From a virus: DNA of 16,645 nucleotides. Of the stretch, positions 1 to 16,044 are shown piece after piece. The stretch lies in IMG/VR virus record IMGVR_UViG_3300045993_000193; one strand, 5' to 3'. The position numbers and the translations under genes are program-made. Positions within the stretch are counted from its first letter, which is position 1; each line of letters begins with the position of its first letter. A model generated the notes under the pieces. That model did not search any database. It was not told where the DNA came from and saw nothing but the letters and a program-made list of their open reading frames with translations.

Positions 1-114
1 GTCTCGTGGACGTGAACGCTGTCGCCCGCGCCGCTGAGGTGTCGGCGGCGCAGGCGGCAGCCCTCGCCGCACAGGTCGCGTTGTCCGCTGACGCCATGCG
101 GGTTCAGGTCGCGG
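1..114. repeat. Terminal overlap, copy 1 (identical to 16532-16645); circular-closure signature of the assembly
   Basis: Base-by-base comparison shows 1-114 equals 16532-16645. The overlap lies inside an ORF that reads continuously across the junction. Confidence 0.95.
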
Positions 115-353
115 CAGCAGCGCAGGCCGCGCAGGAGTCGCAAGCCCGGTACATCGACCCGATCCAGAAGGACATCGCTGACCTCCGCCGCGCCCAGTAC
201 GAGCAGCAGGGGCAGCGGGCTCAGGTGTCGGACTCCCGCTCCAAGAACGGGTCAGTCGGTCTGTGGATCGGTTTGGGCGTGTCGTCGTTCCTCGGGTTCA
301 TCGGCATGGTCGTCGGCATCTCGGGTTTCATCTTCGCGGTTACAGGAAGGTAG
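1..353 (+). CDS. C-terminal part of the wrap-around lysis-cassette protein (Ala/Gln-rich coiled coil with a C-terminal transmembrane anchor); N-terminal part is at 16282-16645
   Basis: The reading frame is continuous with 16282-16645 through the 114-nt overlap, giving 200 aa in total. The C-terminal hydrophobic segment is GLWIGLGVSSFLGFIGMVVGISGFIFAV. Stop is TAG 351-353. It sits between the holin and the endolysin. Confidence 0.7.
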   Translation, partial: LVDVNAVARAAEVSAAQAAALAAQVALSADAMRVQVAAAAQAAQESQARYIDPIQKDIADLRRAQYEQQGQRAQVSDSRSKNGSVGLWIGLGVSSFLGFIGMVVGISGFIFAVTGR

Positions 354-359
354 AAGGAC

Positions 360-1034
360 ATGACTAGTGCCAGGCTCGTACCTGCTGGGGTGACGTTGCG
401 GGATCAGGTGAACCATCGTTGGCCAGGGCGGGACAAGGCCTCTGATGGCTGGGTGGGTGATGCCGCCCACGCCTCCCGGAAGTCGGACCATAATCCGGAC
501 GCGAACGGCTGGGTTCATGCCCTGGATATCGACCACGACCTACGCGGCGACGTGGGGGATGATGAGAAGTTCCTGAGTCAGTTGCGGGACTACATCCGGG
601 CGGGGAAGGACCACGGCGTCGTGTCCTACATCGTCCACGACGACAGGTTGGCGCAGGACTCAACGGGATGGCAGTGGGCCAGGAACACGACGCTGGAGCA
701 CCACGAACATATTCACGTGTCGTTCACTGCCGCTGGGGAGCATCGCGGGGACACGTTCGACCTTCCCATATTCAGCCCACCCGTGTGGGATGGGCATGTG
801 CCCGACGATGTGGCGATCTACCGGGCGGAAGCCAACCCCAACGTGGAATCCCCAGCCGCATGGAGGGTCGCTGCACGCCTGTACGACCTCGGCTACTACT
901 ACGGACCCGCCCCCATCCTCGGACACCAGGGATACCCCACACGGGCTGTAGCGGCATGGCAGAAAGACCACGGCTGGGACGTCAACCCCGACGGGGCATG
1001 GGGACCCAAAGCAAGCAAACTGTTGTTCGGGTAG
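360..1034 (+). CDS. Endolysin: N-terminal zinc peptidase M15-like domain plus C-terminal PG_binding_1-like domain
   Basis: SDHNPDANGWVHALDID and HEHIHVSF fit the H..D...H metal triad of VanY/M15-type peptidases. The C-terminus (AAWRVAARLYDLGYY...GYPTRAVAAWQKDHGWDVNPDGAWGPKASKLL) fits the peptidoglycan-binding repeat pattern. A purine-rich SD (AGGAAGG/GAAGGA) precedes ATG 360. Confidence 0.85.
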   Translation: MTSARLVPAGVTLRDQVNHRWPGRDKASDGWVGDAAHASRKSDHNPDANGWVHALDIDHDLRGDVGDDEKFLSQLRDYIRAGKDHGVVSYIVHDDRLAQDSTGWQWARNTTLEHHEHIHVSFTAAGEHRGDTFDLPIFSPPVWDGHVPDDVAIYRAEANPNVESPAAWRVAARLYDLGYYYGPAPILGHQGYPTRAVAAWQKDHGWDVNPDGAWGPKASKLLFG

Positions 1035-1060
1035 ACACCAACACGGCGGGGCTGTACAGT
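1032..1060 (+). promoter_or_regulatory. Candidate SigA-type early promoter driving a leaderless transcript
   Basis: TAGACA (1032-1037, 5/6 to TTGACA), a 17-nt spacer, then TACAGT (1055-1060, fits TANNNT). The ATG of the next gene (1068) lies 7 nt after the -10 hexamer, and no SD is present. The -35 overlaps the endolysin stop codon. Confidence 0.4.
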
Positions 1061-1067
1061 CGGTTAC

Positions 1068-1262
1068 ATGACTACAACATTCCCCCGCGTTTGCGGGTGC
1101 GGCGAGACTCAGGACGTCACCACCGTCGTGATGAGCGACAAACTCTGGACCGAGTTCTTCTCCGTTGAAGGGGCCACGCGCCCCGACTACGCGACCGCTT
1201 GCCGCGTCTGCATCTCAGACTGGCAGCGCTACGCGGGACCGCTGCAGGTCGCATCGCCATGA
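1068..1262 (+). CDS. Small Cys-rich (CxC...CxxC) hypothetical protein, first early gene
   Basis: 64-aa ORF with high third-position GC. Cysteines occur at CGCG and CRVC. The stop overlaps the next start as ATGA. Confidence 0.6.
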   Translation: MTTTFPRVCGCGETQDVTTVVMSDKLWTEFFSVEGATRPDYATACRVCISDWQRYAGPLQVASP

Positions 1263-1444
1263 ACCGTGTTGAACTGTTAGCAGACAAATACGAGCAACTG
1301 CTGGTCCCCACCGTGGAGGCTAAGCAGGAACTCCTAGCCGCCTGCCGCGACCACCTGGCAATCGGCTACTCCGAAGTGGACGTAGCGAAGTGGGCGGGCG
1401 TGTCCCGCGCCACCCTCCGCAAATGGGTCGGCAAGGACGCCTGA
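1259..1444 (+). CDS. Helix-turn-helix DNA-binding protein (MerR/excisionase-like HTH)
   Basis: ATG 1259 overlaps the upstream stop (ATGA). The C-terminal GYSEVDVAKWAGVSRATLRKWVG is a typical HTH. Length is 61 aa. Confidence 0.7.
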   Translation: MNRVELLADKYEQLLVPTVEAKQELLAACRDHLAIGYSEVDVAKWAGVSRATLRKWVGKDA

Positions 1445-1656
1445 TGGACCTCCTGCTGATCGGTGTCCTCATCGCGGCCCTGTTCCTTGTATCCACCGTC
1501 TCCTACCTCGTCGGCGTCGATAAGACCGAACGCCTCTACCACCGGGACATGGCAACGGCACGCCTCGCCACACGCCGCGTCCAACGCGACCTCGAAGAAG
1601 CCCGCGTCGAAACCGCGATGCTCCGCAGAATCATTAGGGATAAGGAAATGTCATGA
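1444..1656 (+). CDS. Small membrane protein (N-terminal TM helix plus charged helical tail)
   Basis: ATG 1444 sits in a TGATG junction. MDLLLIGVLIAALFLVSTVSYLV is followed by an Arg/Glu-rich helix. Length is 70 aa. Confidence 0.6.
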   Translation: MDLLLIGVLIAALFLVSTVSYLVGVDKTERLYHRDMATARLATRRVQRDLEEARVETAMLRRIIRDKEMS

Positions 1657-1814
1657 CGTACGTAGCGCTCACTGAATGCTGCCGATGCCACACCCACACC
1701 ACCGACCTGACCGTGAATCAGGTGGGCCACGCCTACTGTCCCGACTGCCGGGACGCCGACAACGGTGTTCACTTCCACGCCTTCGACCTCGCCACCCTGC
1801 ACCATGACCGCTGA
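1653..1814 (+). CDS. Small zinc-ribbon-like protein (53 aa, not in the ORF track)
   Basis: ATG 1653 overlaps the upstream stop (ATGA). Translation is MTYVALTECCRCHTHTTDLTVNQVGHAYCPDCRDADNGVHFHAFDLATLHHDR, with CCxC and CxxC pairs. Stop is TGA 1812-1814. Confidence 0.5.
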   Translation: MTYVALTECCRCHTHTTDLTVNQVGHAYCPDCRDADNGVHFHAFDLATLHHDR

Positions 1815-2517
1815 ACTTCACACCGCCCTCGCGAAGGCGAACCTGTTCCTCACCAACCCGGGCAAGGACGGGAAGGGGAACTATGGCGCATTCCTGACGT
1901 TGGATGCCCTGCTGGAGCATGTGCGTAAGCCGCTGGCAACCCAGGGACTGTCCCTGGTACAGGACGTCATCCTCGACGGTGACCGGGTCCAGATCGTCAC
2001 CCAACTCCTCCACTCATCTGGTGAGTCGATCGTGTTCGGTCCCCTCTCCGGGCCTGCCGGGGCGAACTGGCAGCAGCTCGGCGGTGCGATCACCTACGCG
2101 AGGCGCTATGCCCTCATGGCAGCGTTGGGGATCGCCGGTGGGGACGATGACGACGCCCAGGCCCACACTGATGCGAACCCGCAATCCACAGTAGTACGCC
2201 ACACGGGGCCGCTGGGTGCGGCGGAGGCGCGGAAGAACCTCGGCCCAGCCACCACGAAGCAGGTCGGTTTCGTTGCCGCCCTGATGAAAGCCCAGGGGTT
2301 GAACGAGATTGCCCTGAACACGCTGTCCACCAGTGAACTGGGGTTTGAGATGCCGACTGAGGGCCTGTCGAAGTTGACGTTCGATCAGGCGTCGAAACTG
2401 ATTACCCGGATGCAGAAAGCCGGTGAGGGCGTCACCCGGACTAAGTCCACACGCGACGACGACGACCCTTGGGCGAACATTCCTGTCACCGGACCAGATG
2501 GGGAGGTACTGATATGA
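1804..2517 (+). CDS. erf: ERF-family single-strand annealing protein (recombinase)
   Basis: LDALLEHVRKPLATQGLSLVQ and GGAITYARRYALMAALGIAGGDDDDA match the conserved ERF core (TYxRRYxL...LGI...DDD). The in-frame ATG at 1804 was chosen (MTAELHTALAKANL). The C-terminal tail contains DDDDPW. Confidence 0.85.
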   Translation: MTAELHTALAKANLFLTNPGKDGKGNYGAFLTLDALLEHVRKPLATQGLSLVQDVILDGDRVQIVTQLLHSSGESIVFGPLSGPAGANWQQLGGAITYARRYALMAALGIAGGDDDDAQAHTDANPQSTVVRHTGPLGAAEARKNLGPATTKQVGFVAALMKAQGLNEIALNTLSTSELGFEMPTEGLSKLTFDQASKLITRMQKAGEGVTRTKSTRDDDDPWANIPVTGPDGEVLI

Positions 2518-3419
2518 GCATCCAGCGGTACAACACGTACAGCAACCGCAGCGAGGACGGGATATTCGTTCTGTACGACGATCACGTTGCCGCTATGGAG
2601 CAGGCGCAAACCCGTGTACGGGCCAGCATGACCCGCGTGGGTTCCCTGTTCACCGGGTACGGGGGACTGGACATGGCCGTCGGCGGCGATCTGGCGTGGT
2701 ACTCGGAGATAGATCCAGCCGCCTGCACCGTGCTGGAGGCGCACCACTCGGACGTACCCAACCTGGGGGATATCACCCAAGTGGACTGGGGGAACGTTCC
2801 CCCGGTGGACGTCCTGACGGGGGGATACCCGTGCCAGCCCTTCTCCCATGCAGGCAAGAGACAAGGAAGCGACGATGAGCGACACCTGTGGCCCTACGTT
2901 CGAGATGCCATCGATGCGCTACGACCTGGTGTCGTCGTCCTGGAGAACGTGCGAGGCCAGCTCACTCTGGGATTTGGAGATGTCCTCGCCGACCTTTCCC
3001 GAGTGGGGTATGACACTCAGTGGGGTGTTGTACGAGCTTCCGACGCCGGCGCACCCCACTCCAGGGCCCGCGTGTTCATCACTGCCCACCCCGCAAGCAT
3101 CAGACGCGAAGGGCACGAACAGCCTCACCGTCGCGCTATCCCGGATAGGTATACGACAGATGTACCTCTCCGAATGGGTGGCACTGTACGAGGCCGGCTT
3201 GACCGATGGGCTGGAATTGTCGGACGACCTTGTCCTCCTATGAGATACCTGGGCAGCGACGGCGTGACAAGGATCGATCCACGCTTCCCTGAATGGCTCA
3301 TGGGCCTACCGCAGGGGCATGTCACAGGCCACGGGCTACGCCCAGCGCAGGAACTGAAACTATGCGGCAACGGGGTCGTACCCCAGCAAGCCGCCCTAGC
3401 CCTAGCGATGCTCACATGA
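2514..3419 (+). CDS. DNA (cytosine-5)-methyltransferase (uninterrupted frame-0 ORF; see the nested +1 ORF 2875-3243)
   Basis: The motifs seen are SLFTGYGGLD (I), GGYPCQPFSHAGK (IV), VVVLENVRG (VI), DAGAPHSRARVF (VIII), RFPEWLMGLPQGH (IX-like) and GNGVVPQQA (X). GGGGAGG SD lies 8 nt before ATG 2514, which forms an ATGA junction with erf. A 38-aa N-terminal extension precedes the usual MTR-GSLF start. Confidence 0.85.
   Translation: MSIQRYNTYSNRSEDGIFVLYDDHVAAMEQAQTRVRASMTRVGSLFTGYGGLDMAVGGDLAWYSEIDPAACTVLEAHHSDVPNLGDITQVDWGNVPPVDVLTGGYPCQPFSHAGKRQGSDDERHLWPYVRDAIDALRPGVVVLENVRGQLTLGFGDVLADLSRVGYDTQWGVVRASDAGAPHSRARVFITAHPASIRREGHEQPHRRAIPDRYTTDVPLRMGGTVRGRLDRWAGIVGRPCPPMRYLGSDGVTRIDPRFPEWLMGLPQGHVTGHGLRPAQELKLCGNGVVPQQAALALAMLT
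2875..3243 (+). CDS. Nested +1-frame ORF inside the C5-MTase gene (122 aa). It could be an out-of-frame TRD segment, a split subunit or an overprinted gene.
   Basis: AAGGAAG lies 5 nt upstream of ATG 2875. Third-position GC is higher than in the host frame across the whole ORF. It encodes SSLPTPQASDAKG...RQMYLSEWVAL. Its stop TGA 3241-3243 overlaps frame-0 ATG 3240 as ATGA. Confidence 0.4.
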   Translation: MSDTCGPTFEMPSMRYDLVSSSWRTCEASSLWDLEMSSPTFPEWGMTLSGVLYELPTPAHPTPGPACSSLPTPQASDAKGTNSLTVALSRIGIRQMYLSEWVALYEAGLTDGLELSDDLVLL

Positions 3420-3580
3420 TGCCCGCTGATGTGCCTGCCCCGTGGTGGCCCGGGATCACTGCTGCCCAGGTCCGCGTCTACTGCACCGCCTACCGGGCTG
3501 ACAGGTGGTGGTGGATACACACCTACCCCACGGGGGAGCAGGCCCGTGTCCGGGTCATGTGGAACCGGGCATGCCCATGA
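3416..3580 (+). CDS. Small Trp-rich hypothetical protein (54 aa)
   Basis: ATGA junctions occur at both ends (3416-3419 and 3577-3580). Third-position GC is high. Translation is MMPADVPAPWWPGITAAQVRVYCTAYRADRWWWIHTYPTGEQARVRVMWNRACP. Confidence 0.55.
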   Translation: MMPADVPAPWWPGITAAQVRVYCTAYRADRWWWIHTYPTGEQARVRVMWNRACP

Positions 3581-4143
3581 AACTCTGCATCGCGGACCCG
3601 CCGTACCTAGGACGTGCATCGGAATGGTACGGCGATCGGGGGACGACTACCGTCGCGCGGAACCGGGGGATCAGCTACGCACCTGCGGATCATCACCCCG
3701 ATGCGCACGTGTGGGACGACCCGGCCAAACATCAGGAACTCGTCGCCCGGCTGATCGACGACTATGACGGCTGGGCGATTGCAATGGCACACGACAACCT
3801 CCGGGTCTACCTGCCCATGATCCCCAGCAGCGTCCCGTTCCGCGTTGGCATATGGGTAAAGGGCGTGATGCCAGGGGCTGCCCGCGTCCTTAACAGCTAT
3901 GAGCCCGTCATAGTCCGAGTCCCTGAAGGACGCCGATCGTCCGTCGGAACTGTGGGGCCACATCCACAGGACGCCGTGCATATCAAGCGCGTAAACGTCG
4001 GATTTACGGGGGCGAAGCCTCCCGCATGGACCCGATGGGTCCTAGACATGCTCGGCTACCACCAGGAAACGGACACCGTGGATGACATGTTCGCGGGATC
4101 GGACGCTGTAGCCGCAGAGATAGCCCAGGGGGTACTCCTGTGA
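3577..4143 (+). CDS. DNA amino-methyltransferase 1 (beta-class order, DPPY catalytic motif; N6-adenine or N4-cytosine)
   Basis: MKLCIADPPYLG lies at the N-terminus. FTGAKPPAW and VDDMFAGSDAV (a motif I-like FxGSx in which the last Gly is Asp) lie near the C-terminus. The protein ends in AQGVLL. Confidence 0.8.
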   Translation: MKLCIADPPYLGRASEWYGDRGTTTVARNRGISYAPADHHPDAHVWDDPAKHQELVARLIDDYDGWAIAMAHDNLRVYLPMIPSSVPFRVGIWVKGVMPGAARVLNSYEPVIVRVPEGRRSSVGTVGPHPQDAVHIKRVNVGFTGAKPPAWTRWVLDMLGYHQETDTVDDMFAGSDAVAAEIAQGVLL

Positions 4144-4259
4144 ACCCTAAACGCCTGTTCCGATGCACGGGCTGCGGAGGATGGCGCTACTACCTCAACA
4201 AGCCCTGCCACACATGCGAAATCCTGAAACGCAGGTATTGGCTGAAGGGGACCGGGTGA
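4140..4259 (+). CDS. Cys4 zinc-ribbon mini-protein (39 aa, not in the ORF track)
   Basis: GTG 4140 forms a GTGA junction with the upstream stop, and TGA 4257-4259 sits in a TGATG junction with the next start. Translation is (M)[38 protein letters not shown], with two CxxC pairs. Third-position GC is high. Confidence 0.5.
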
Positions 4260-4901
4260 TGGACCCGTACTACGAGGACGATCAGGTGACCTTGTATCAC
4301 GGGGACTGCCTGGAACGCACTGAATGGCTCACGGGTGACGTGCTCGTGACAGAACCCGCCCTATGGGATCGGGTGGGCTAGAGGCGGAGGTCGGTATCAC
4401 GCCCCGAAGAACCCTGGATCGATAGCAGGAGACCTAGACACGCAGGCACGTGATTCGGCGCTGGAAGTTTGGGGGACAAAGCCCGGATACCTCTTCGGCG
4501 CACCACAAGTAGCCCCACCCGTCGGGACGCGGCAGGTTCTGGCGTGGGTGAAGGCTGAACACTTAGGAATGTTCGGTTCGTTCGCTGGGTGGCGACGAGA
4601 CTGGGAGGCTATCTACCTGACAGGGGCATGGACGGTTCAGCCTGCATCCCGTTCCGGGGTCATCAGGTCAGGGACCATCACAGCAGCAACGGGAGCAGGC
4701 CACCCTCACGCGAAACCCGTAGGGCTGCTGGAGCAACTGATCGAGTGCGCCCCTGAGGGCGTCATCGTCGATCCGTTCGCTGGTGGCGGCTCCACACTCG
4801 TCGCCGCTAGGAACCTGGGCCGTAAGGCGATCGGTGTGGAGATCGAGGAACGTTACTGCGAAATCATTGCCCTACGACTAGCGCAAGGAGTACTCCTGTG
4901 A
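4259..4901 (+). pseudogene. DNA amino-methyltransferase 2 (N6_N4_Mtase-like), interrupted by a 1-nt frameshift inside the (D/N)PPY catalytic motif
   Basis: The frame starting at ATG 4259 reads LYHGDCLE...[15 protein letters not shown], then stop 4379-4381. The +1 frame reads NPPYGIGW from 4353 and stays open to 4901, with HPHAKPVGLLEQLI and VDPFAGGGSTLVAARNLGRKAIGVEIE. Removing one A at 4353/4354 yields VLVTDPPYG and one ORF of about 213 aa. Confidence 0.75.
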
Positions 4902-4902
4902 A

Positions 4903-4928
4903 CCGTGTCCCCCTAATAGGGGACACGG
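4903..4928 (+). terminator. Perfect 10-bp GC-rich hairpin at the end of the early operon (candidate intrinsic terminator without a U-tract)
   Basis: CCGTGTCCCC (4903-4912), a 6-nt loop CTAATA, then GGGGACACGG (4919-4928). It begins 2 nt after the MTase-2 stop codon. No T-run follows, which is common in actinobacteria. Confidence 0.55.
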
Positions 4929-4950
4929 GTATACGCAATCGTGACCTACC

Positions 4951-5000
4951 GTGAACGCACGCAACCGCAAGCAAACACACGCAAACGAACGCAAACGCAT
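4951..5000. repeat. Five tandem 10-bp units with phased GCAAAC cores; 47-nt T-free tract on the + strand
   Basis: The units are GTGAACGCAC GCAACCGCAA GCAAACACAC GCAAACGAAC GCAAACGCAT. GCAAAC occurs at 4971, 4981 and 4991 with an exact 10-bp period. There is no T between 4953 and 4999. Confidence 0.75.
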
Positions 5001-5166
5001 AGATCCGCCCCTAGACAGGCTCGGTACCCTCAATGAGGACACGCAGTGGACCCGCCGCGAAGCGTTAGAGGTCAGGCAAGGGGGCTCAGAACCCCGGGGA
5101 GGGCCACACTCAATGACACTCCATCCTGTGGATAACCCTGTGGATAACCTGTGGATAAGCACATGA
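4951..5166 (+). CDS. Possible small basic protein upstream of the terminase (71 aa); it may instead be non-coding
   Basis: GTG start. Stop TGA 5164-5166 overlaps terminase ATG 5163 as ATGA, the usual junction here. However, third-position GC is only moderate and the ORF is built largely from the two repeat arrays. The N-terminus is NARNRKQTHANERKR. Confidence 0.3.
   Translation: MNARNRKQTHANERKRIDPPLDRLGTLNEDTQWTRREALEVRQGGSEPRGGPHSMTLHPVDNPVDNLWIST
5125..5159. promoter_or_regulatory. Three tandem CCTGTGGATAAC-type repeats, each containing TGTGGATAA (reverse complement of the DnaA-box consensus TTATCCACA)
   Basis: TGTGGATAA occurs at 5127-5135, 5139-5147 and 5150-5158, with spacings of 12 and 11 bp. 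The array lies immediately upstream of, and overlaps, the terminase start region. Confidence 0.8.
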
Positions 5167-6956
5167 GTACACGCCATGACAACGCTCAACAGATCGCACT
5201 CAGACGCATGCTCACAGCACGAGTAGCAACAGGCGAATGCGTGTGCCCCAAATGCGGACAGCACATACAACCAGGGCAAGCATGGGACGCAGGACACAGG
5301 ATCGACCTGATGCGCCGACCTGGGCAAGCAAGCATGGATCCTGAACTACTCATCCAAGACGGCAACGTGCGACCAGAACACACACGATGCAATCGCAGTG
5401 CAGGCGCACGAGTGGGCAATGAGAAACGTGGACGCGAACGCGCAGCACGCAAAGAGTTATCCACAGGTTTTCCACAGGGCAATCCCAACTCCGCTACCAA
5501 ATCCCCACATCCCCCCTACAAGGGGCGGGTACTGGAGGTAGCGAACCCGGATTCTGTGCCGCCTGTGGTGGCTCCACGGGTCAGGAAGGGCATGGTTCTG
5601 CCGCGTCTGGAGACTCCCCGAACGCCGCGGGTGAAGAGTCTGGGGCCGGACGCGATTGACTGGATTAACAAGAGCGGGATTCTCGGTGGCGCGTGCCTGT
5701 TGCCGTGGCAGGAGTATGCGATCACCCGGGCGCTGGAGTTGAAACCGGATGGGTCGCTGCGTTGGAAGACTGTGGTGTGGACTGTCGCCCGCCAGTCGGG
5801 GAAGTCGTGGGCGGTTCGGGCGTTGGCGTGGTGGCGTATCCACCAGTCAGCCCGGTTTGGTGAGCCGCAGATGATCCTGCACATGGCCCAGATGATTGAT
5901 ACGGCGGTCGAGGTGTGGACCCCGGCAGCCACGCGGGCGATCGAATTGCATGGTGCTAAGGCGGTGAAGTGGGGTCGGGGGACTGAGGAGATCATTCTCC
6001 CGGACCGGGTGGGCCGTTGGAAGTTGCAGGCCGCATCGAACCGGGCCGCGGTCGGATTCTCACTCACCAGTGCGATTGTGGATGAGGCGTGGGCGGTGGA
6101 CGCCGGGATCGTCCACAACGGGGTGGAACCGGCCATGCTCGCCCGCCGTGAGGCCCAGTTGTACCTCGTGTCTACTGCCGGTGAGGCCTCCTCGACCCTG
6201 TTGAAGGACTACCGGGCGCAAGCCCTGGCCGACAAGGACGGCACCGGGGACGTCCTCCTGGTGGAATGGTCCTCACCTCCGGAGGCCCCGTACGACGTCC
6301 CATCGACGTGGAAGTGGGCTTCCCCGTGGTGGACGAAGCAGCGTGAGCAGTTCCTGACGTCGAAACTGTCATCCATCCCGGAGGCACGGTTCAAGGCGCA
6401 GTACTGCAACCAGTGGCAGCAGGCGATCAACGGCTGGATCCCCCGCTCCCTGTGGACAGCCACCGCCAGCACAGATGAGCCCGCCGGTCGCCCTGACGTG
6501 GTCGCCGTCGAGGCCAGTGCGGGGCATGAACGGTGGGCAGCAGTAGCCGCATGGACCGTGGACGGCACGATCACCGTCCGCACCCGCGCCTCCATCTCCC
6601 CAGCCGACGTGTGGCAATGGGTCGAGGCCTACCGCCCCCACCGGTTGCTCATCGGGCCGTCCGTAGCAGCGACCTACAACCGGCGTGCCCGGTTCGAAAT
6701 GGTCACCGGAACCGACACCAACCGCCTGTTCGACTCCGTCAACCGGCTGATCCACGACCGGCAACTCATCCACCACCCTGCTGACTCTGACCTGACGGAC
6801 GCGGTCGGGTTCGCCGTCCCCGCCGTCTCGAACACCGGGATGCACCTGTCCGTCCTCAAATCGACGGGCCCAGTCGAGGCGGCACAGGCGTTGGTGATGG
6901 CTGCAGGGTCCCTGCTGACACCCGGGGCCACCCGCCCAAGTGTCAGATCCGCGTGA
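5163..6956 (+). CDS. HNH endonuclease domain fused to the large terminase subunit
   Basis: The N-terminus (CVCPKCGQ...WDAGHRIDL...NVRPEHTRCNRSAG) is an HNH/zinc-finger nuclease pattern. It is followed by a Lys/Arg/Pro-rich linker and then a Terminase_1-like region with LLPWQEYAI, Walker A-like ARQSGKSW and Walker B-like AIVDEAW. The ORF is single and stop-free. ATG 5163 is preferred over the GTG at 5151. Confidence 0.85.
   Translation: MSTRHDNAQQIALRRMLTARVATGECVCPKCGQHIQPGQAWDAGHRIDLMRRPGQASMDPELLIQDGNVRPEHTRCNRSAGARVGNEKRGRERAARKELSTGFPQGNPNSATKSPHPPYKGRVLEVANPDSVPPVVAPRVRKGMVLPRLETPRTPRVKSLGPDAIDWINKSGILGGACLLPWQEYAITRALELKPDGSLRWKTVVWTVARQSGKSWAVRALAWWRIHQSARFGEPQMILHMAQMIDTAVEVWTPAATRAIELHGAKAVKWGRGTEEIILPDRVGRWKLQAASNRAAVGFSLTSAIVDEAWAVDAGIVHNGVEPAMLARREAQLYLVSTAGEASSTLLKDYRAQALADKDGTGDVLLVEWSSPPEAPYDVPSTWKWASPWWTKQREQFLTSKLSSIPEARFKAQYCNQWQQAINGWIPRSLWTATASTDEPAGRPDVVAVEASAGHERWAAVAAWTVDGTITVRTRASISPADVWQWVEAYRPHRLLIGPSVAATYNRRARFEMVTGTDTNRLFDSVNRLIHDRQLIHHPADSDLTDAVGFAVPAVSNTGMHLSVLKSTGPVEAAQALVMAAGSLLTPGATRPSVRSA
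5456..5477. promoter_or_regulatory. Two inverted copies of the same repeat (TTATCCACA and TTTTCCACA) inside the HNH-terminase linker
   Basis: GTTATCCACAGG (5456-5467) is the exact reverse complement of CCTGTGGATAAC at 5125-5136 and 5137-5148. A second box, TTTTCCACA, lies at 5468-5476, 11 bp later. Confidence 0.8.
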
Positions 6957-6970
6957 TATAGGGCCTCTAG

Positions 6971-8062
6971 GTGTACGGTGCACCTATGGCGCTATGGCCG
7001 ACGAGGGCTCGGGCGTCTGTCGCTGACGCCCAAACCCGCCTGCAGGTGCGGGAGATCATCCCGGGTATGCGCGTATTCGTACCCTCCTGGCAGGAATTCG
7101 CGTCGTATTCCGAGCTCTACGCCCTCCAGGTGCCAGCGTTGACACGGGGTGTCCGCCTGATCTCGGGGACTGTCGCACAGTTGCCGCTCGAAACGTGGCA
7201 GGGCCAAGCCAACATCGACGTGGACACCCCGCAGCCGGGTGTCGCCCGCTGGGTGACGATGCAACGCACCGCGCAGGACCTGGTCCTCCACGGCTACGCC
7301 TACTGGCGCAGGACAGTGGGCGGTGTCGTGTGGATGCCCGCCGCTGAGACGACCCGCACACCCACCAACACCGTCACCGACTCCCACGGCCACGAATACA
7401 CCATCGCGGACCCCACCAAGGACCCCGTCAACGGTCAGGTGATCGCGTTCACCGGCTACCGCGAGCCCCTCCTGACGATCGGTTCGGACGCGATCATCAC
7501 CGCGATGGCGATCGAGGCGGCGTCCCGCGTGTACGCGGAGACCCCATCCCCCAACGCCGTCCTCAAGAACACCTCCAACTATGAACTGGATGACGCGGAA
7601 ATCGACACCCTCCTCGCGAACTACAAGGACGCCCGCAAGGATTCCAACGTCGCCTACCTCAACGGTGGCATCGACCTGGTCGCTACCGGGTTCGACGCCG
7701 TGCAGACGGCCCTGGTGGAGCAGCGCAACCAGTCCTCGCTCGCGATGGCCCGCCTGCTAAACCTGGACCCCTCATGGGTCGGCGCCAGTGTCGCGGGATC
7801 CTCGCTGACCTACTCCAATCGGATTGATCTGCGAACCGACCTGTACGGGCTGACCCTCACCGACTACCTCCTGCCCATAGAACAGCGGTTGGGTATGCCC
7901 GACATGGGTGGCGCAAAGGTCCAATTCTCGGCATCAGAGTTCCTGCGTGCGAACCTCCCCGACCGGGTCACGATGGCCGTCGCTTTGGTGGCGGCGGGAA
8001 TCCTCACCACCGTCGAAGCCCGTGCATTCATCTCAGACGAACCCACCGGAGGAGCAGTATGA
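6971..8062 (+). CDS. Portal protein (HK97-family-like)
   Basis: It lies directly after the terminase and is about 360 aa. The N-terminal YALQVPALTRGVRLISGTVAQLPLE resembles the conserved portal N-terminal helix. The start is ambiguous (GTG 6971 or ATG 6986). Confidence 0.75.
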   Translation: MYGAPMALWPTRARASVADAQTRLQVREIIPGMRVFVPSWQEFASYSELYALQVPALTRGVRLISGTVAQLPLETWQGQANIDVDTPQPGVARWVTMQRTAQDLVLHGYAYWRRTVGGVVWMPAAETTRTPTNTVTDSHGHEYTIADPTKDPVNGQVIAFTGYREPLLTIGSDAIITAMAIEAASRVYAETPSPNAVLKNTSNYELDDAEIDTLLANYKDARKDSNVAYLNGGIDLVATGFDAVQTALVEQRNQSSLAMARLLNLDPSWVGASVAGSSLTYSNRIDLRTDLYGLTLTDYLLPIEQRLGMPDMGGAKVQFSASEFLRANLPDRVTMAVALVAAGILTTVEARAFISDEPTGGAV

Positions 8063-8244
8063 ACCCGACCATGCTCCGATCCCGCCGCACCCGGAAGCCA
8101 CGCACCCGGTACGTACTGGAAATGCCCGGCGAAACGAGCGCTGAGGCCGCTTACGACGCCATACGCATGTTCCGGCAGGCGCTGCAATCCCCCCGGCAAG
8201 TCCTCGTCGCGGCGGGCTGCACAGTGAAGGAGATTCGCGCATGA
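8059..8244 (+). CDS. Small hypothetical protein between the portal and capsid genes (basic N-terminus)
   Basis: ATGA junctions occur at both ends and third-position GC is high. Length is 61 aa. Confidence 0.6.
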   Translation: MNPTMLRSRRTRKPRTRYVLEMPGETSAEAAYDAIRMFRQALQSPRQVLVAAGCTVKEIRA

Positions 8245-9770
8245 GCGTATATATCCGGGACTACCCAATGACGTTGACCGTCCGGGAAGACGTAGACCTC
8301 CCCGACGGTGTCGCCGCGATCCTGTCCGGCATCGCCGTCCCCTACAACACGCCCACAGAGATCGGCCCCGGACTGCGTGAACAATTCGCCCCAGGCTCGT
8401 TCGACGTAAACGACGTCATCGGCAAGCCAATGGCGTGGCGTCACGGTGAACCCATCGGTGTCATCCGGGAAGCACACAACGAGGACCACGGCCTGGTCAT
8501 CGACCGTGCTGATATCGCCGACACCGTCGTGGGCCGTGACGCGACCACCCTCACCAAGCTCGGCGGGATGGGTCTGTCAGTCGGATTCCAGCCCGTATCG
8601 AACGCGAAGACCCCCGGACTGATAACCCGGATGAAAGCCGCCCTGCACGAGTTGTCGTTAACGCATCTACCTGCTTATGCCACCGCTGGCGTGAGCTCGA
8701 TCCGAGAGGAAGAAACCATGCCAGAGACCACTGAGGTCGAGACCGCTGTGGTCCCGGCACCTGATACCCGTGAGTTCGTCACCCGTGACGCGCTCGCCGC
8801 CGTGGAGCGCCAGATCGACGCCCTCGCCCACATCGCACCCGTCAACACGAACCCACTCGCCCAGTACCGCACGGTGGGCGAATACCATCACGCGGTCCTC
8901 GCTGGTACCGCTGAGGTTCGCGCCCTGGTGGATCAGGTCACGGGCGACAACCCCGGCCTGATGACCCCGAACTGGCAGACCAACGTCCGGGGCATCATCG
9001 ACCGTGGCCGCCCGTCGATCACTGCCCTCGGAACAGAGTCGCCCGGTACTTCCGGGATGGACATCAACTGGCCCTATTTCGACGGCGATTTGGCCGCGAT
9101 TGTGGAGGAGCAGTTGACGGAGAAGGCGGAAGTCAACTCCGTCAAGATCTCGTTCAAGAAGGGTTCCGCGTCGCTGCGGACCTGGGCGGCAGCATCGGAT
9201 ATCTCCTTCCAGTTGCTGCAGCGGTCCAACCCGTCCTATCTGGAAGCCCACAACCGGGTCATGCTCGCCTCGTACAGCGCGGTCACTGCGAACGTGTTCG
9301 CTGATGCCCTCGTCGCCGGTGGCACCGCCTCAGCCGTCGATTACGATCTGGCAGCCGATACGACGGGTGCCCTGTTCCGGGCCGCCGTGTTCGCGGCATC
9401 CCTGGAAGTGGACGCCGCTACAGGTGCCCCCGCCTCGGTGGTCCTCGTCGCCCCGAACGTGTTCACCAAGGCGGGTGGCTGGTCCGACCTGACCCCGCAG
9501 CCGTACGGCACGATGAACGTGGGCGGCACCGCAACGGCGTCCACCCTGAACGTGTCCGTTTCCGGGCTGCGCGTGGTCCTCGACCGTAACCTGGCCGCCG
9601 GGACGATCATCGTGACGAACGACCTCGCCGCGAAGTGGGTGGAGGATGGTCCGCGCCTCATCGACGCCGTCAACGTCGCACAACTGGGTCAGGACGTCGC
9701 CGTGTACGGGTTCGGTGTCCCCGTCCTGTACATCGCTGCTGGTGTCGTCAAGATCACGAACCTCGCCTAA
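8241..9770 (+). CDS. Prohead protease (HK97 S78/U35-like) fused to an HK97-fold major capsid protein
   Basis: N-terminal 150 aa: GIAVPYNTPTEI...EQFAPGSFD...WRHGEPIGV...GLSVGFQP...LHELSLTHLPAYA matches the prohead protease pattern. After an acidic linker (REEETMPETTEVE), the C-terminal ~340 aa looks like a capsid protein (NWPYFDGDL, AEVNSVKISF, SDISFQLLQRS). A hairpin follows the gene. Confidence 0.85.
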   Translation: MSVYIRDYPMTLTVREDVDLPDGVAAILSGIAVPYNTPTEIGPGLREQFAPGSFDVNDVIGKPMAWRHGEPIGVIREAHNEDHGLVIDRADIADTVVGRDATTLTKLGGMGLSVGFQPVSNAKTPGLITRMKAALHELSLTHLPAYATAGVSSIREEETMPETTEVETAVVPAPDTREFVTRDALAAVERQIDALAHIAPVNTNPLAQYRTVGEYHHAVLAGTAEVRALVDQVTGDNPGLMTPNWQTNVRGIIDRGRPSITALGTESPGTSGMDINWPYFDGDLAAIVEEQLTEKAEVNSVKISFKKGSASLRTWAAASDISFQLLQRSNPSYLEAHNRVMLASYSAVTANVFADALVAGGTASAVDYDLAADTTGALFRAAVFAASLEVDAATGAPASVVLVAPNVFTKAGGWSDLTPQPYGTMNVGGTATASTLNVSVSGLRVVLDRNLAAGTIIVTNDLAAKWVEDGPRLIDAVNVAQLGQDVAVYGFGVPVLYIAAGVVKITNLA

Positions 9771-9783
9771 GCCCCTCCGGGCC

Positions 9784-9817
9784 GGTGGCCGGGTCCTTTC
9801 GCGGGGGCCCGGTCACC
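9784..9817 (+). terminator. 13-bp GC-rich stem-loop after the capsid gene (terminator, attenuator or mRNA stabiliser)
   Basis: GGTGGCCGGGTCC (9784-9796) pairs with GGGCCCGGTCACC (9805-9817), including two G-U wobbles, around an 8-nt loop TTTCGCGG. There is no U-tract. Confidence 0.5.
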
Positions 9818-9839
9818 GTTAGACAAGAAAGGGGACGTG

Positions 9840-10133
9840 ATGTGGGCAACCGTTGACGACGTGGCCGCGCACATGCGGGTCCCCGCCGACGACTACATGG
9901 CGTCCAAGCTCGACGTCGCCCTGGACTGGGCCGCGAGGAAGCGCCCCGACCTGGACAGGTACACGGAGCAGAGCTTTGCGATCCGGGAAGCGGTGTGCCG
10001 GTACACGGCGCAACTGATCCGAACCGGCTCGAGCCCGCAGTCCCCGGGGTATCCCACCGACGTCGTTGAGCAGTCGTGGGACGACTGGGCGCGGATCACC
10101 GACCTCATCGGACGCCGTTTGGTAGCCCGATGA
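9840..10133 (+). CDS. Head-tail connector/adaptor (gp6-like)
   Basis: MWATVDDVAAHMRVPADDY...LDVALDWA resembles the conserved N-terminus of phage head-tail adaptor proteins. SD AAAGGGGA lies 4 nt before ATG 9840. GTG 9837 is an alternative start. Confidence 0.65.
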   Translation: MWATVDDVAAHMRVPADDYMASKLDVALDWAARKRPDLDRYTEQSFAIREAVCRYTAQLIRTGSSPQSPGYPTDVVEQSWDDWARITDLIGRRLVAR

Positions 10134-10252
10134 ACCTCAACCTGTGGCATGTGGCTATCTGGGCGATCATCTGGCTGGCCGGGTACAAGGTCGGCAGTCG
10201 CGCATTCCTCGCGTACACGCGCCGACCCGGCGACGGACGGCACACGCAATGA
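10130..10252 (+). CDS. 40-aa membrane-type mini-protein inside the head-tail module (not in the ORF track)
   Basis: ATGA junctions occur at both ends (10130-10133 and 10249-10252). Translation is MNLNLWHVAIWAIIWLAGYKVGSRAFLAYTRRPGDGRHTQ. About 33 of 40 codons end in G or C. Confidence 0.55.
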   Translation: MNLNLWHVAIWAIIWLAGYKVGSRAFLAYTRRPGDGRHTQ

Positions 10253-10587
10253 CGCTTGTAACTGATCTGGACTCGTGGGCGTCCACGTTGGCGACCGCCG
10301 TGTCATTGCCCGCGACCCGTGATCCAGATTTGGTCCTCCCGCCGTGCATCCTGGTGGGGTTGCCGGAGATCACTGCCGTCACCCTGACCGCTGTCACCTG
10401 CACTGTGCCCGTGTGGCTGGTTGCTGCCGGTACGGGGAAGCCCGCAGGGGACCAGCTCCTCACAAGCATCCTCACCTTGCTCAATCAGCCCGACATGGTC
10501 CACGCCGCCTCCGATACCACGATCACCGTCGCTGGGGTCGATTTCCACGCCTACGCCTGCACCGCCCGTCTACAGATAACCCTCTAG
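10249..10587 (+). CDS. Head-tail joining or tail terminator-like protein (assigned by position)
   Basis: The in-frame ATG at 10249 forms an ATGA junction. The product is 112 aa. The assignment rests on position between the adaptor and the putative major tail protein. Sequence similarity was judged only by eye. Confidence 0.45.
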   Translation: MTLVTDLDSWASTLATAVSLPATRDPDLVLPPCILVGLPEITAVTLTAVTCTVPVWLVAAGTGKPAGDQLLTSILTLLNQPDMVHAASDTTITVAGVDFHAYACTARLQITL

Positions 10588-10595
10588 GAGAAGTC

Positions 10596-10979
10596 ATGGC
10601 CGTTAATTCCCTCGCCGGGGCGCTGTTCACGTTCGGTGTCGGCGCTGTCCCCACCATGTACACCACGCAGATCACCGACGGCACCATCACCGCGACCCCC
10701 ACCGTGGAACGTGTACGGACCCTGGGGCCGGATGCCGCCTACGTCGGCACCGACCTGCAGCACACCGCTGACGTCAACTTCCTGTACGACGAGTCAACAG
10801 GGTTCTACGCCGCCCTGGACACCGCGACGCTGACGAACGAAGCCCTCGCCGTGACGATCACCGGGGGTGTCGGCACCTGGTCCGGGACCCTGTACGTGAC
10901 GGCCCTGTCAGTGTCGTACGCCGCTGACGGTCTCGCGACCTGTTCCGCATCGTTCGACGGCACCCTGACGTTCGCCTAA
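10596..10979 (+). CDS. Putative major tail protein (127 aa)
   Basis: It has one of the strongest SDs in the window (AGGAG 10586-10590, 5-nt spacer). It is Thr/Gly/Ala-rich with beta-type composition and lies upstream of the tape measure. Confidence 0.5.
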   Translation: MAVNSLAGALFTFGVGAVPTMYTTQITDGTITATPTVERVRTLGPDAAYVGTDLQHTADVNFLYDESTGFYAALDTATLTNEALAVTITGGVGTWSGTLYVTALSVSYAADGLATCSASFDGTLTFA

Positions 10980-10987
10980 ACCCAGTC

Positions 10988-11461
10988 ATGGCTGACCGGT
11001 TCGACGTGACGGGTCTTACCGCGGTGAAGCACGTCCTGAACACGATCGCGAAAGAAGACCTGAACGAGGCGCGGAAGGAAATCCGCACCGCATCCAAGCA
11101 GATTGCGGAACGGCATTTGATCCCCGCGTTGAAGGCGTCGGCGGGTTCGTCCCAGGTCCCCATCGCGTCCCGGATGGCTGACACGGCTAGGGCGAGGTCG
11201 GATCGGATCGTGTTCGTCAAAGTAGGTGCCGTGAACCCGAAACTGTCAGGGTTCAAGCGGGGACAGTCCCGGTATCGGACGGGCATGGCGTGGGGTTCCG
11301 AACGCGGCCCCGTATCCGGCGCGAAAGAGAACACGTACGCCGTCCCCCACAACGAGCGCGGCTACTGGGTGCGGCCCGCCGTCGATAAGACCGCAGGGAA
11401 AGCCGCCGACGAGTACAAGGCGATGCTGCACCGGATCATGCGGAAATACGGAGGCTTCTAA
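10988..11461 (+). CDS. HK97 gp10-like tail-completion/neck protein, occupying the slot where tail assembly chaperones normally sit
   Basis: MADRFDVTGLTAVKHVLNTI... and NERGYWVRPAVDK resemble the gp10-family N-terminal and PFLxPA-like elements. A TAATG junction links it to the tape measure gene. Confidence 0.5.
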   Translation: MADRFDVTGLTAVKHVLNTIAKEDLNEARKEIRTASKQIAERHLIPALKASAGSSQVPIASRMADTARARSDRIVFVKVGAVNPKLSGFKRGQSRYRTGMAWGSERGPVSGAKENTYAVPHNERGYWVRPAVDKTAGKAADEYKAMLHRIMRKYGGF

Positions 11462-13961: not shown

Positions 13962-14269
13962 GCGCCGTCAGTGCACACAACAACATCTACGACCGGCTTA
14001 TCGCCCTGTCGGCCCGCTACCACACCAGCGTGCATATTGGTGGCCCGTTCCGGGAGGGTGACCCCGCCCACGTCAACGAGCACAACCGCGCCAACGTCGC
14101 CATGATCCACCTGCGGGATGCCGGGAACGCCGCCGGTGTCACCCCCACGATCGCGATCACCCTCCCCGACTCCGCCGGGGTCGGCGCCACGGGTCACATC
14201 GCTGACCATGTCCTGATGGACGCCGCACTCGATGTACTGGAATCTGTAACCCTGCCGTGGGAGGTCTGA
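13958..14269 (+). CDS. Small tail-associated hypothetical protein (103 aa)
   Basis: ATG 13958 forms an ATGA junction. The gene lies within the minor tail gene block. Confidence 0.55.
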   Translation: MSAVSAHNNIYDRLIALSARYHTSVHIGGPFREGDPAHVNEHNRANVAMIHLRDAGNAAGVTPTIAITLPDSAGVGATGHIADHVLMDAALDVLESVTLPWEV

Positions 14270-15962: not shown

Positions 15963-15975
15963 GAGAGGAAATCCC

Positions 15976-16044
15976 ATGACCCTTGACATTGTTGAATTGA
16001 TCCTGCTTGGCGTGATCCTCGCGCTACTGATCTTCCGACGCTGA
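15976..16044 (+). CDS. 22-aa single-TM micro-protein at the head of the lysis cassette
   Basis: A strong SD, AGGAGAGG (15961-15968), lies 7 nt before ATG 15976. Translation is MTLDIVELILLGVILALLIFRR. Stop TGA 16042-16044 sits in a TGATG junction with the holin start. Confidence 0.5.
   Translation: MTLDIVELILLGVILALLIFRR

Follow-up and report, generated by a model that had tools for sequence, protein, structure and literature searches.

To our knowledge, how very small tailed phages without replication genes start DNA synthesis has not been established. The question is raised by the DNA analysed here (the window, a stretch of 16,645 nucleotides), which represents a cos-type siphophage of ~16.5 kb, assembled as a circle. 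When its main + strand ORFs were scanned with Pfam and PHROG, the genes recognised were ERF, two methyltransferases and those for lysis and structure, and none matched an initiator, helicase, primase or polymerase; this fits the initial annotation, which had named an ERF annealing protein and no replication genes. A TerS gene was likewise not recognised in the window by these scans. GC-skew profiles were uninformative, since every gene lies on the same strand and the signal is dominated by local coding bias. Megablast of positions 4500-7000 against GenBank phages gave no match, and the best protein-level matches were to the TerL proteins of Arthrobacter, Microbacterium and Gordonia phages at only 26-30% identity, indicating that the phage has no annotated close relative.

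Five DnaA boxes form two opposed arrays

The whole 16,645-base window was scanned for the DnaA-box motif with at most one mismatch, and four exact boxes and one box with a single mismatch were found in two opposed arrays of three and two. Box 1 (5127-5135), box 2 (5139-5147, 12 bp past box 1) and box 3 (5150-5158, 11 bp past box 2) are exact and lie on the - strand, with the + strand reading TGTGGATAA and the canonical TTATCCACA thus on the other strand. Box 4 (5457-5465) is exactly TTATCCACA, and box 5 (5468-5476, 11 bp past box 4) is TTTTCCACA, with one mismatch, both on the + strand. The gap is 3 bp between boxes 1 and 2 and 2 bp between boxes 2 and 3 and between boxes 4 and 5. The scan reproduces all five 9-mers, with their 12, 11 and 11 bp spacing, that the initial annotation had described. 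The sole other match with at most one mismatch in the 16,645 bases is TGTGGATGA at 6077. Shuffled sequence had a mean of 1.54 matches, and 0 of 200 shuffles reached six; by arithmetic from the motif scan, ~0.03 matches are expected per 350-bp span compared to the five observed within 350 bp. The five-box cluster is far beyond chance, and a chance pattern is excluded by the shuffles.

The 9-mers agree with the DnaA-box definition, TTATCCACA or TT(A/T)TNCACA (PMC4285127 Table 1; also quoted in bioRxiv 10.1101/866236). The 12-mer CCTGTGGATAAC, which encloses box 1 (5125-5136) and recurs at 5137-5148, is identical to R1 of E. coli oriC including its flanks (C-TGTGGATAA-C), bearing out the match to the DnaA-box consensus that had been claimed earlier; the 9-mers are of the high-affinity type (PMC4285127). 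The corresponding 12-mers are CCTGTGGATAAG at 5148-5159 and GTTATCCACAGG at 5456-5467. The inverted relation of CCTGTGGATAAC to GTTATCCACAGG is as previously noted, and the arrays as a whole form 29-nt inverted-repeat arms (left 5130-5158, right 5457-5485) that are 90% complementary with 298 nt between them. In predicted single-stranded DNA folds the arms pair on both strands, with the stem in the MFE as well as the centroid structures (z -2.4 and -3.2 for the two strands).

The high-affinity box of many bacteria is TTATCCACA, and that of M. tuberculosis and Streptomyces is TTGTCCACA (PMC4285127). A doubt raised earlier, that actinobacterial DnaA might prefer another consensus, is partly answered: an actinobacterial oriC (B. 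longum) is annotated with boxes of the TTATCCACA, TTGTCCACA and TTTTCCACA types (PMC2430713), and several relatives of the phage (L145, L214/L215, L098 and L112) carry TGTGGACAA, the complement of TTGTCCACA. Genome bins gave weak hints to the host: contigs of relatives fall into bins with MAGs of Nanopelagicales and Ilumatobacteraceae, and L154 has a gene with an Lsr2 domain.

We propose, with a probability of roughly 0.4, that these are genuine host-DnaA sites and that the two opposed and phased arrays recruit the host replication machinery; both DnaA binding and a replication role are what we infer. The arrays would be bound by host DnaA, which would in turn bring the host helicase and primosome to the phage DNA. 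This could happen in one of two ways: the arrays could be a DnaA-dependent origin or, in a single-stranded region, they could pair into a stem showing duplex boxes and so provide a primosome-assembly site.

The arrays resemble oriC without its unwinding elements

The initial annotation had called the arrangement oriC-like, which is borne out for the boxes and not for their surroundings. The box phasing of an oriC-type origin is present, at 12, 11 and 11 bp in two opposed arrays. As in E. coli oriC (left array R1 to I2, right array R4 to C3), the same 9-mer and R1 12-mer are used, boxes are 2-3 bp apart and in one orientation per array, and TGTGGATAA on the left opposes TTATCCACA on the right, as R1 does R4. 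However, no AT-rich unwinding element was found beside either array, including by the left one, where oriC has its DUE; the flanks are GC-rich, and among the 40-mers around the locus GC is lowest (0.42-0.45) in the box arrays themselves. Nor did inspection reveal a DnaA-trio, in the form of a 3-nt periodic GAT/CTA run, on either side of the arrays. A self-sufficient oriC-like origin is therefore unsupported. The window also differs from oriC in that its arrays are ~320 bp apart rather than ~180, the 298 bp separating them are ordinary protein-coding HNH sequence, and all five boxes are of the high-affinity type with no admixture of weak sites.

The arrays enclose an HNH module at the inferred genome end

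The arrays enclose an HNH endonuclease module (CxxC...DAGH...N...HxxCN; 5163-5455, + strand), which begins a continuous HNH-linker-TerL frame (5163-6956, + strand) with the TerL body from ~5589. The HNH-TerL fusion is kept in relatives of 590-614 aa, in which linker indels are in frame. Box 4 lies inside the linker coding sequence (residues ...KELSTGFPQG...), and the linker protein that carries boxes 4-5 is poorly conserved. The HNH module has an atypical composition (GC3 0.49 compared to ~0.8 elsewhere, with A far exceeding T), and 29-nt arms of 90% complementarity around such a module could suggest a mobile HNH cassette with the inverted repeats as its termini. We rejected this reading, which has next to no probability, because relatives without the repeats (L121, L142, L153, L154 and others) have HNH at this locus; moreover, the odd composition is family-wide, and inspection found no direct repeat flanking the arms.

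Contig ends suggest that this locus is at a physical genome end. Among 80 IMG/VR contigs of the family, 46 begin at the homologue of ~5496, just upstream of the TerL body, and seven contigs representing three genotypes begin at the same homologous base. Four contigs terminate 20-41 nt past a T-run (5468-5471), and base composition changes at the inferred end. We assign the putative cos region to 5490-5500, with the left end from ~5496, ~24 nt downstream of the T-run and 15 nt upstream of a C-run (5511-5516). Given the contig starts, the boxes would lie on either side of the HNH module within the final ~370 bp of virion DNA. The locus is the junction between the early genes and the packaging/structural operon. 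The pattern CACAG-N6-CCCAACTCCGC, searched for right ends, gave chance matches only, bar one already known relative, and no pair of left-end and right-end contigs of one phage was obtained. With the inferred end inside the HNH-TerL frame, the terminase gene would be whole only once the ends join. The earlier placement of the boxes at the terminase 5' end holds in terms of the HNH-TerL frame, but in the linear genome this part is a separate HNH module at the right end.

This position could point to a host-factor site linked to the terminus, with DnaA bound both 20-40 bp and 340-370 bp from the right end, where it would aid the cos-cleavage and packaging complex or act on the first-entering DNA. 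Boxes 4-5 are ~19-40 nt from the inferred end (box 5 to the cos end, ~19 nt), and box 5 overlaps the T-run, which is conserved family-wide. IHF, the host factor at the lambda cosB packaging site, offers a parallel, in that the window also has sites of a host-factor type next to the terminase gene and the point of cos cleavage; unlike at cosB, however, their distribution among relatives does not follow the terminase or the cos elements. The packaging direction and the end that enters first are also presumed only by analogy, with lambda and HK97. We consider this explanation improbable, also in view of the relatives described below.

Boxes 1-3 form the far end of a 260-nt intergenic region that opens with a perfect 10-bp hairpin (CCGTGTCCCC-TAATAG-GGGGACACGG, 4903-4928, + strand) directly after a methyltransferase ORF. 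The hairpin may be a terminator without a U-tail; a simple promoter and terminator scan of 4400-5800 called none, the hairpin included. Between hairpin and boxes lies an A/C-rich, nearly T-free tract (4954-5003, + strand) with 10-nt periodicity and AACGCA-like units. This tract and CTCAATGA..ACAC at 4912, 5028 and 5108 are weak as repeats. Box 3 occupies the Shine-Dalgarno region, its end 4 nt before the ATG at 5163, and an alternative GTG start at 5151 is inside the box. In an alignment, the relative L121 has AGGAGAAA at the position of box 3.

The arrays might thus be a DnaA-operated gate or timer that represses or activates HNH-TerL and the late operon, perhaps by looping to boxes 4-5. Boxes 1-3 would cover the promoter-proximal, ribosome-site and start-codon region, and multiplying phage copies would titrate DnaA and flip the switch. 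Box 3 in place of the Shine-Dalgarno region fits this possibility, as does the single TGTGGACAA that overlaps the HNH GTG start codon in L214/L215. That DnaA acts as a transcription factor is well established, the dnaA promoter and lambda pR being examples. In addition, L066, L074, L098 and L112, each with two boxes and one inverted, carry them directly upstream of a conserved TTGACA-17-TATACT promoter in which the hexamers are kept and the spacer has diverged, an arrangement that fits transcriptional control equally well. However, the scan revealed no promoter near the boxes of the window, the same operon functions in close relatives that lack boxes, and the context in L150 and L145 is a replication-initiator gene. 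We therefore regard control of the late operon as unlikely, at perhaps one chance in a handful.

Box arrays come and go among relatives

The nearest relatives, with TerL 81-89% identical, have no boxes but keep the T-run and the C-run. The L121, L142, L153 and L154 types have neither boxes nor a recognisable initiator, and the box cluster is absent from 32 of the 34 family loci that include upstream sequence. As the box-less, initiator-less nearest relatives must still replicate, the arrays are dispensable for the family. Box arrays nevertheless reappear in about six more distant lineages, each time just upstream of HNH, and in these diverged relatives they lie within ~0.8 kb upstream of the genome end. 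L150 has four boxes, L145 three including TGTGGACAA, L173 three, and L155/L156 one exact box ~0.8 kb upstream of the anchor. Between L066 and L112 the boxes are kept and the flanks have diverged. Conservation in related phages, which the initial annotation had proposed to check, is therefore mixed: boxes are maintained between L066 and L112 and recur at the locus, but the nearest relatives lack them. The suggestion, made at the same time, that the repeats are packaging sites is weakened, since the terminase and the T-run and C-run near cos persist among relatives whether boxes are present or not. The same observations argue against a terminus-linked role for DnaA, as does the distance of 0.4-0.8 kb between boxes and end in other relatives.

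L150 and L145 each have a gene that matches the PHROG 'replication initiation protein / O-like' (E 7e-14 and 3e-13, respectively) and whose 3' end overlaps the box array. Three palindromic repeats of ~21-24 bp follow the array; L214 also has three clear palindromic repeats. The O-like gene, the box-like array and the palindromic repeats in L150 and L145 favour a replication role. As read from the sequence, this layout is the anatomy of iteron-type origins with DnaA as helper. In L150, L145 and L214 the first box-like 9-mer coincides with the coding sequence of a conserved SNLW(I/T)W protein motif, of which it may be a by-product. In another contig, P0005, an HTH_36 gene lies upstream. No Rep or O-like initiator gene was found next to the window boxes; the window lacks an O-like gene and has the strongest boxes.

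The same array occurs in unrelated viral contigs

The exact triple array with 12/11 spacing is present in more than 119 IMG/VR contigs, which range in GC from 0.26 to 0.67 and fall into several distinct flank families. In a second, unrelated and high-GC phage group, two arrays lie between terS and terL, an arrangement that speaks for a link to the terminus. The genes neighbouring the arrays are mixed (terminase, helicases, exonucleases, methyltransferase, O-like initiator), and no single typical gene neighbourhood was found among the viral contigs. A count of arrays gave a weak and non-significant tendency to be near contig ends. A literature search on DnaA boxes in actinophages or beside cos sites found nothing directly relevant.

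The occurrence of the triple array across varied GC and flanks implies that the binder must be a conserved host protein rather than a phage-specific one. This bears on the reading in which the repeats are sites for a protein of the phage itself, be it HNH-TerL, a small terminase that escaped recognition or a regulator, and their likeness to DnaA boxes is coincidental. The sites do adjoin cos and the terminase gene, and with no TerS recognised, DNA recognition during packaging is left unexplained. However, chance is very unlikely to yield an exact copy of so well known a 9-mer with a match that extends to the R1 12-mer, the same array is shared by unrelated phages, relatives carry the other natural DnaA-box variant, TGTGGACAA, and the sites do not co-vary with the terminase. 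A phage-encoded binder is thus highly unlikely.

Recurrence in many unrelated phages and varied gene contexts is also what a DnaA decoy might show, in which host DnaA is sequestered or its nucleotide state altered, host initiation is stopped or deregulated, and nothing happens in cis. Phage copy number would multiply these very strong consensus boxes. Clusters of three to five boxes outside the origin, datA and DARS1/2, act on DnaA in the chromosome, and the opposed pair 6 bp apart in the 2+1 clusters of the L066 type resembles the DARS core boxes I/II, which are opposed and 5 bp apart (PMC6868365, PMC4585315). The window arrays, in contrast, are not in the DARS arrangement, with three tandem boxes, 298 bp and two tandem boxes, and no IHF or Fis sites were identified in them. 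In addition, a decoy does not need a fixed place, yet within the family the boxes invariably lie close to the genome end, immediately before HNH. We judge a decoy without action in cis to be quite unlikely.

Likeness to known DnaA-dependent systems

Loading of the host replication machinery by the arrays, the reading we prefer, has precedents. Origins of the iteron type that are helped by DnaA include lambda ori, which lies within gene O, and P1 oriR, which has tandem DnaA boxes at both ends (two and three). L150 and L145, with an O-like gene, an array over its 3' end and three palindromic repeats, appear similar to both, and the window arrays share with P1 oriR the 2 + 3 tandem boxes at two ends. 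The window differs in having no initiator gene, clear iterons or AT-rich tract, so that the boxes alone remain.

For the single-stranded version of the preferred reading, the parallel is the DnaA-dependent 'ABC' primosome site (A site, R6K, pBR322), a hairpin of single-stranded DNA whose stem includes a DnaA box. The window arrays are predicted to pair into a ~29-bp stem with duplex boxes, and in the clusters of L173 and the L066 type there are short hairpins that have a box as part of the stem. However, the loop in the window would be ~300 nt compared to a few nt, and L150 and L145 have direct repeats only.

A further likeness is to the iss region of T5-like phages, where pairs of consensus boxes 3 bp apart are set in inverted repeats, in non-replicative DNA near the terminus that is thought to enter first (Davison, bioRxiv 10.1101/866236). 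The role proposed there would favour a terminus-linked function in the window as well, but in T5 it is hypothetical. In addition, T5 has eight boxes several kb from the end, within a large terminal repeat, and they are conserved in all T5-like phages, whereas the window has five boxes within 370 bp of the cos end that are absent in its nearest relatives.

Implications

A broader reading would join these elements: phage arrays of optimal DnaA boxes could be a widespread, largely undescribed class, which in this phage would act as a DnaA-operated clamp at the terminus that both loads helicase and primosome and gates the terminase. We consider this combination a long shot. If it were true, the host helicase and primosome would be loaded onto a genome without replication genes of its own, either because DnaA bridges the arrays or because these fold back. 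That complex would also be the gate for a terminase gene made whole only by the joining of the cos ends, and replication, late expression and packaging would be tied to the availability of host DnaA and to phage copy number. For annotation, a genome end within the HNH-TerL frame changes how the terminase gene should be read.

For small tailed phages without replication genes, optimal host-initiator sites at a fixed place offer a concrete hypothesis that is testable in cis, and some relatives have a phage initiator gene together with DnaA boxes at that same place. The triple array in more than 119 unrelated viral contigs, in some of them between terS and terL, suggests that phages make use of host DnaA far more often than the handful of textbook examples (lambda, P1 and the hypothesis for T5) would imply.

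Opposed box arrays flank the HNH module

In the initial annotation, five DnaA-box-like 9-mers were described as lying in two opposed groups, and all five were recovered by motif search of the window. Read on the + strand, TGTGGATAA occurs as an exact match at 5127, 5139 and 5150 (boxes 1-3); its complement TTATCCACA lies at 5457 (box 4) and TTTTCCACA at 5468 (box 5). Across the 16,645 bases, one further match with at most one mismatch was found, at 6077. Dinucleotide-preserving shuffles gave a mean of 1.54 matches, with none of 200 reaching six, and we regard chance or a mobile cassette as a scarcely credible source of the arrays. The true repeat unit is the 12-mer CCTGTGGATAAC/G, and the two arrays form 29-nt inverted arms, 90% complementary, with 298 nt between them. 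As had been noted, the arrangement resembles that of R1 and R4 in E. coli oriC: the array 12-mer is identical to box R1 including its flanks, and the order of the left TGTGGATAA and right TTATCCACA is that of R1 and R4. TTATCCACA is a high-affinity box in E. coli, Vibrio, Pseudomonas and Bacillus, as is TTGTCCACA in M. tuberculosis and S. coelicolor (PMC4285127), and the actinobacterial B. longum oriC is annotated with the TTATCCACA, TTGTCCACA and TTTTCCACA types (PMC2430713). We infer that the 9-mers would be bound by host DnaA.

The further proposal of an oriC-like origin held for the phased, opposed arrays but not for the remaining anatomy, as neither an AT-rich unwinding element nor a DnaA-trio was found beside the window arrays. 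Given that the unwinding element was sought and not found, the element is not of the oriC type. A classical origin is disfavoured by the absence of both features, by the interval between the arrays, which is ordinary coding sequence, and by close relatives that lack the boxes.

Bases 1-114 are identical to 16532-16645; the contig therefore represents a 16,531-bp genome assembled as a circle and opened at an arbitrary point, and the sample contained reads spanning joined ends. All recognisable genes are on the + strand. They comprise an ORF with weak likeness to endolysins, small ORFs of which one weakly matches a helix-turn-helix, ERF, a C5 methyltransferase, N4/N6 methyltransferase fragments, the HNH-linker-TerL frame (5163-6956), portal, tail genes, holin, a prohead protease (Peptidase_S78) fused to the major capsid protein in one 509-aa ORF (8241-9770), and a tail fibre with long collagen-like repeats (14658-15962). 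The protease-capsid fusion was called in relatives too, and the fibre repeats dominate AT and GC skew locally. Two short ORFs (4163-4381 and 4548-4901) match positions 108-138 and 268-345 of phrog_67 (N4/N6 DNA methyltransferase) and look like a decayed or frameshifted gene, or a sequencing error. A 260-nt intergenic region separates the methyltransferase fragments from the HNH-linker-TerL frame. Directly 3´ of the methyltransferase ORF is a perfect 10-bp hairpin (4903-4928), followed by an A/C-rich, almost T-free tract with 10-nt periodicity (4954-5003), and weak CTCAATGA..ACAC repeats lie at ~4912, 5028 and 5108; these may function as a terminator, as bent DNA or as iteron-like sites. Consistent with the initial annotation, none of the window genes was identified as an initiator, helicase, primase or polymerase, and no small terminase subunit gene was recognised among ORFs scanned across 1-16645.

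The window TerL is ~27% identical to TerL of cultured Arthrobacter, Microbacterium and Gordonia phages and falls in a large family of metagenome-derived phages of 14-18 kb. Contigs from relatives have been placed in the bins of Nanopelagicales and Ilumatobacteraceae MAGs, and one relative has an Lsr2-domain gene. The host is likely actinobacterial.

The inferred genome end lies within the terminase gene

Contig starts fall on exactly homologous bases in seven contigs from JGI, ENA and Logan assemblies, which represent three related genotypes (GTCGTTTCGC in L122, L128 and L129; CTCGGGAAGACG in L123, L124 and L125; AGTCGGAAC in L126), each 15 nt 5´ of a C-run and corresponding to window position 5496. 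More broadly, 46 of 80 family IMG/VR contigs start 0-170 nt before the conserved LPRLE motif of the TerL body, most commonly at 74-79 nt, and four contigs retrieved via the HNH gene terminate 30-75 nt past HNH, which is 20-41 nt past a conserved stretch of 5-6 T. In a comparison of the window with L142, L143, L146, L148, L149, L153-L155 and L066, this T-run (G-TTTT(TT), window 5466-5473) preceded the right end by 20-41 nt, and the C-run (6-7 C, window 5511-5516) lay 15 nt inside the left end. Since the T-run occupies three codon phases (L142, L146 and L066), it is a DNA-level element, and the two runs flanking the genome end are probably part of a cos site. Base composition also switches abruptly at the end, with A at 0.27-0.30 and T at 0.11-0.13 on the + strand in the last ~500 nt and A approximately equal to T beyond. 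This was seen in the window (4950-5550) and in every high-GC relative checked other than L153 and L147 (regions including L121, L142, L150, L154, L155 and L145), with or without boxes. GC3 is 0.49 in the HNH module and ~0.8 in other genes.

From the shared contig starts, the contig stops, the T-run and the composition switch, we conclude that the virion DNA would be a linear molecule whose fixed end lies near 5496, its rightmost gene segment being the HNH module and its leftmost the TerL body. As the continuous frame crosses this end, the HNH-linker-TerL gene would be split in the virion and complete only once the ends join. The fusion of 590-614 aa is kept in relatives down to 32-34% identity, and linker indels between the window and L121, a near relative, are in frame. 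In some lineages (L146/147 and the L066 type), HNH is encoded by a distinct gene that has a stop of its own.

The arrays stand at this terminus and at the early/late gene junction. Boxes 1-3 are 340-370 nt from the right end and stop 4 nt 5´ of the HNH start codon, on the spot of a Shine-Dalgarno sequence present in L121; boxes 4-5 are ~19-40 nt from the right end, with box 5 overlapping the T-run position. A host-factor role linked to the terminus, in cos cleavage or DNA entry, has precedents in IHF at lambda cosB and in the proposed T5 injection-stop boxes (bioRxiv 10.1101/866236), the latter preprint being our sole literature find of other arrays near a phage terminus; we consider such a role improbable here. 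The suggestion that the repeats are a packaging recognition site (cosB/pac) was not upheld: the boxes do not co-vary with the terminase, and the element is therefore not a cosB-type site.

Arrays are absent from the nearest relatives and recur in diverged ones

Neither array site carries boxes in the nearest relatives. These comprise the L121/L127 type, with 81% identity over the fusion protein and 89% over the TerL body (P0001), and the L123 type (TerL 84-85% identical), for which the comparison covered the few bases 5´ of the contig start. L121 has an upstream (GGAC)5 tract and a decayed TTCTTCACA alone at the box 5 position. The linker protein encoding boxes 4-5 is poorly conserved among relatives, so these boxes are not maintained by coding.

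Arrays recur at this position, within 0.8 kb 5´ of the end and just before HNH, in a number of diverged lineages. In L150 there are four tandem 9-mers (spacing 12/11/11, the last perfect); L145 has three, including TGTGGACAA, and L155/156 have one exact box ~0.8 kb upstream of the anchor. Among 34 further family loci with upstream sequence, a box cluster was found only in L173 (GTTATCCACA-ACC-TGTGGAAAA-CC-TGTGGAGGG), and a single exact box, TGTGGACAA, lies on the HNH GTG start codon in L214/215.

The arrays of L150 and L145 overlap the 3´ end of a gene matching the PHROG 'replication initiation protein / O-like' class (E 7e-14 and 3e-13), in L145 also matching Pfam HTH_36. The order is O-like initiator gene (wHTH), box-like array, three palindromic 21-24-bp repeats (GGGGTGACG-N3-5-CGTCACCCC) and HNH-TerL start (L150 2598-3106; L145 2-594). 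L214 has the same layout by inspection (about -700 to -400, counted from the TerL anchor), the initiator call resting on the L150 and L145 ORFs. In the P0005 contig, the HNH-TerL gene directly follows an HTH_36 gene. This is how an iteron-type origin assisted by DnaA boxes is laid out, and the module is probably the replication origin of these relatives. At the first box-like 9-mer in L150, L145 and L214, the sequence codes for a conserved SNLW(I/T)W motif, and this box may be a by-product of coding; the motif does not account for the further boxes. As the window phage has no initiator gene, its own element is not an iteron-type origin.

In the distant ~14-kb low-GC relatives L066, L074, L098 and L112, the cluster comprises two boxes in direct and one in inverted orientation (L066, about 11407-11600, reverse strand), kept despite diverged flanks. 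With its opposed pair 6 bp apart, the cluster is DARS-core-like; a datA/DARS-like decoy acting on host DnaA (PMC6868365) seems to us a doubtful role for the window arrays. A conserved TTGACA-17-TATACT promoter follows, then a ~100-nt very AT-rich stretch (GC down to 0.03) and the genes encoding a small secreted SLT-like protein, HNH and TerL. The placement of boxes ahead of a promoter in this type, together with box 3 abutting the start codon in the window, would fit a DnaA-operated gate on HNH-TerL and the late operon, which we hold to be unlikely though worth weighing.

Box arrays are widespread in viral contigs

Scans of IMG/VR found TGTGGATAA-N3-TGTGGATAA in at least 120 contigs and the exact triple TGTGGATAA-N3-TGTGGATAA-N2-TGTGGATAA, with the 12/11 spacing of the window, in at least 119 (L001-L120 and L238-L350). 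The triple-array contigs span GC 0.26-0.67 and several flank families that differ by eye, and the arrays share the extended consensus CCTGTGGATAA(G/C)TCTGTGGATAACCTGTGGATAAC. Among the matches listed, arrays are intergenic in 108 of 120; the genes next to them are mixed, with terminase subunits, helicases and nucleases represented as well as an O-like initiator. Many low-GC contigs among these matches have a TATATA-rich element 30-45 nt past the third box. Among the matches listed, at least ~28 high-GC contigs from an unrelated phage group (typified by L079, 3205-3460, and L032, 104-359 on the - strand; also L240, L246, L254 and L269) carry two arrays in the same orientation, one of four boxes and, ~200 bp on, one of five partly degenerate boxes. 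Both arrays lie in a ~400-bp gap between the TerS gene (phrog_1482) and a TerL-like gene (N-terminus, by eye), and nearby are a G/C palindrome and a short stretch richer in AT. Because a single motif is common to such varied phages, only a conserved host protein can explain it; that the arrays are instead sites for a phage protein, resembling DnaA boxes by chance, is highly improbable.

We tentatively favour, at a probability of roughly 0.4, a reading in which the arrays bring the host's replication machinery onto a genome that encodes none of its own. They might serve as an origin for phage DNA synthesis. Single-stranded fold prediction has both strands pairing the arrays into a ~29-bp stem with duplex boxes (z -2.4 and -3.2), and for this reason they may alternatively act as a DnaA-dependent primosome site in a single-stranded region, the stem presenting the boxes as duplex. 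Functionally, the window element would be akin to known DnaA-box clusters, namely oriC arrays, P1 oriR, T5 iss and datA/DARS. Judged by its sequence, it appears to be a cluster of optimal host-initiator sites placed on both sides of the HNH module at the terminus of a minimal phage. As such it would belong to a broad and apparently little-described class of DnaA-box arrays carried by phages.
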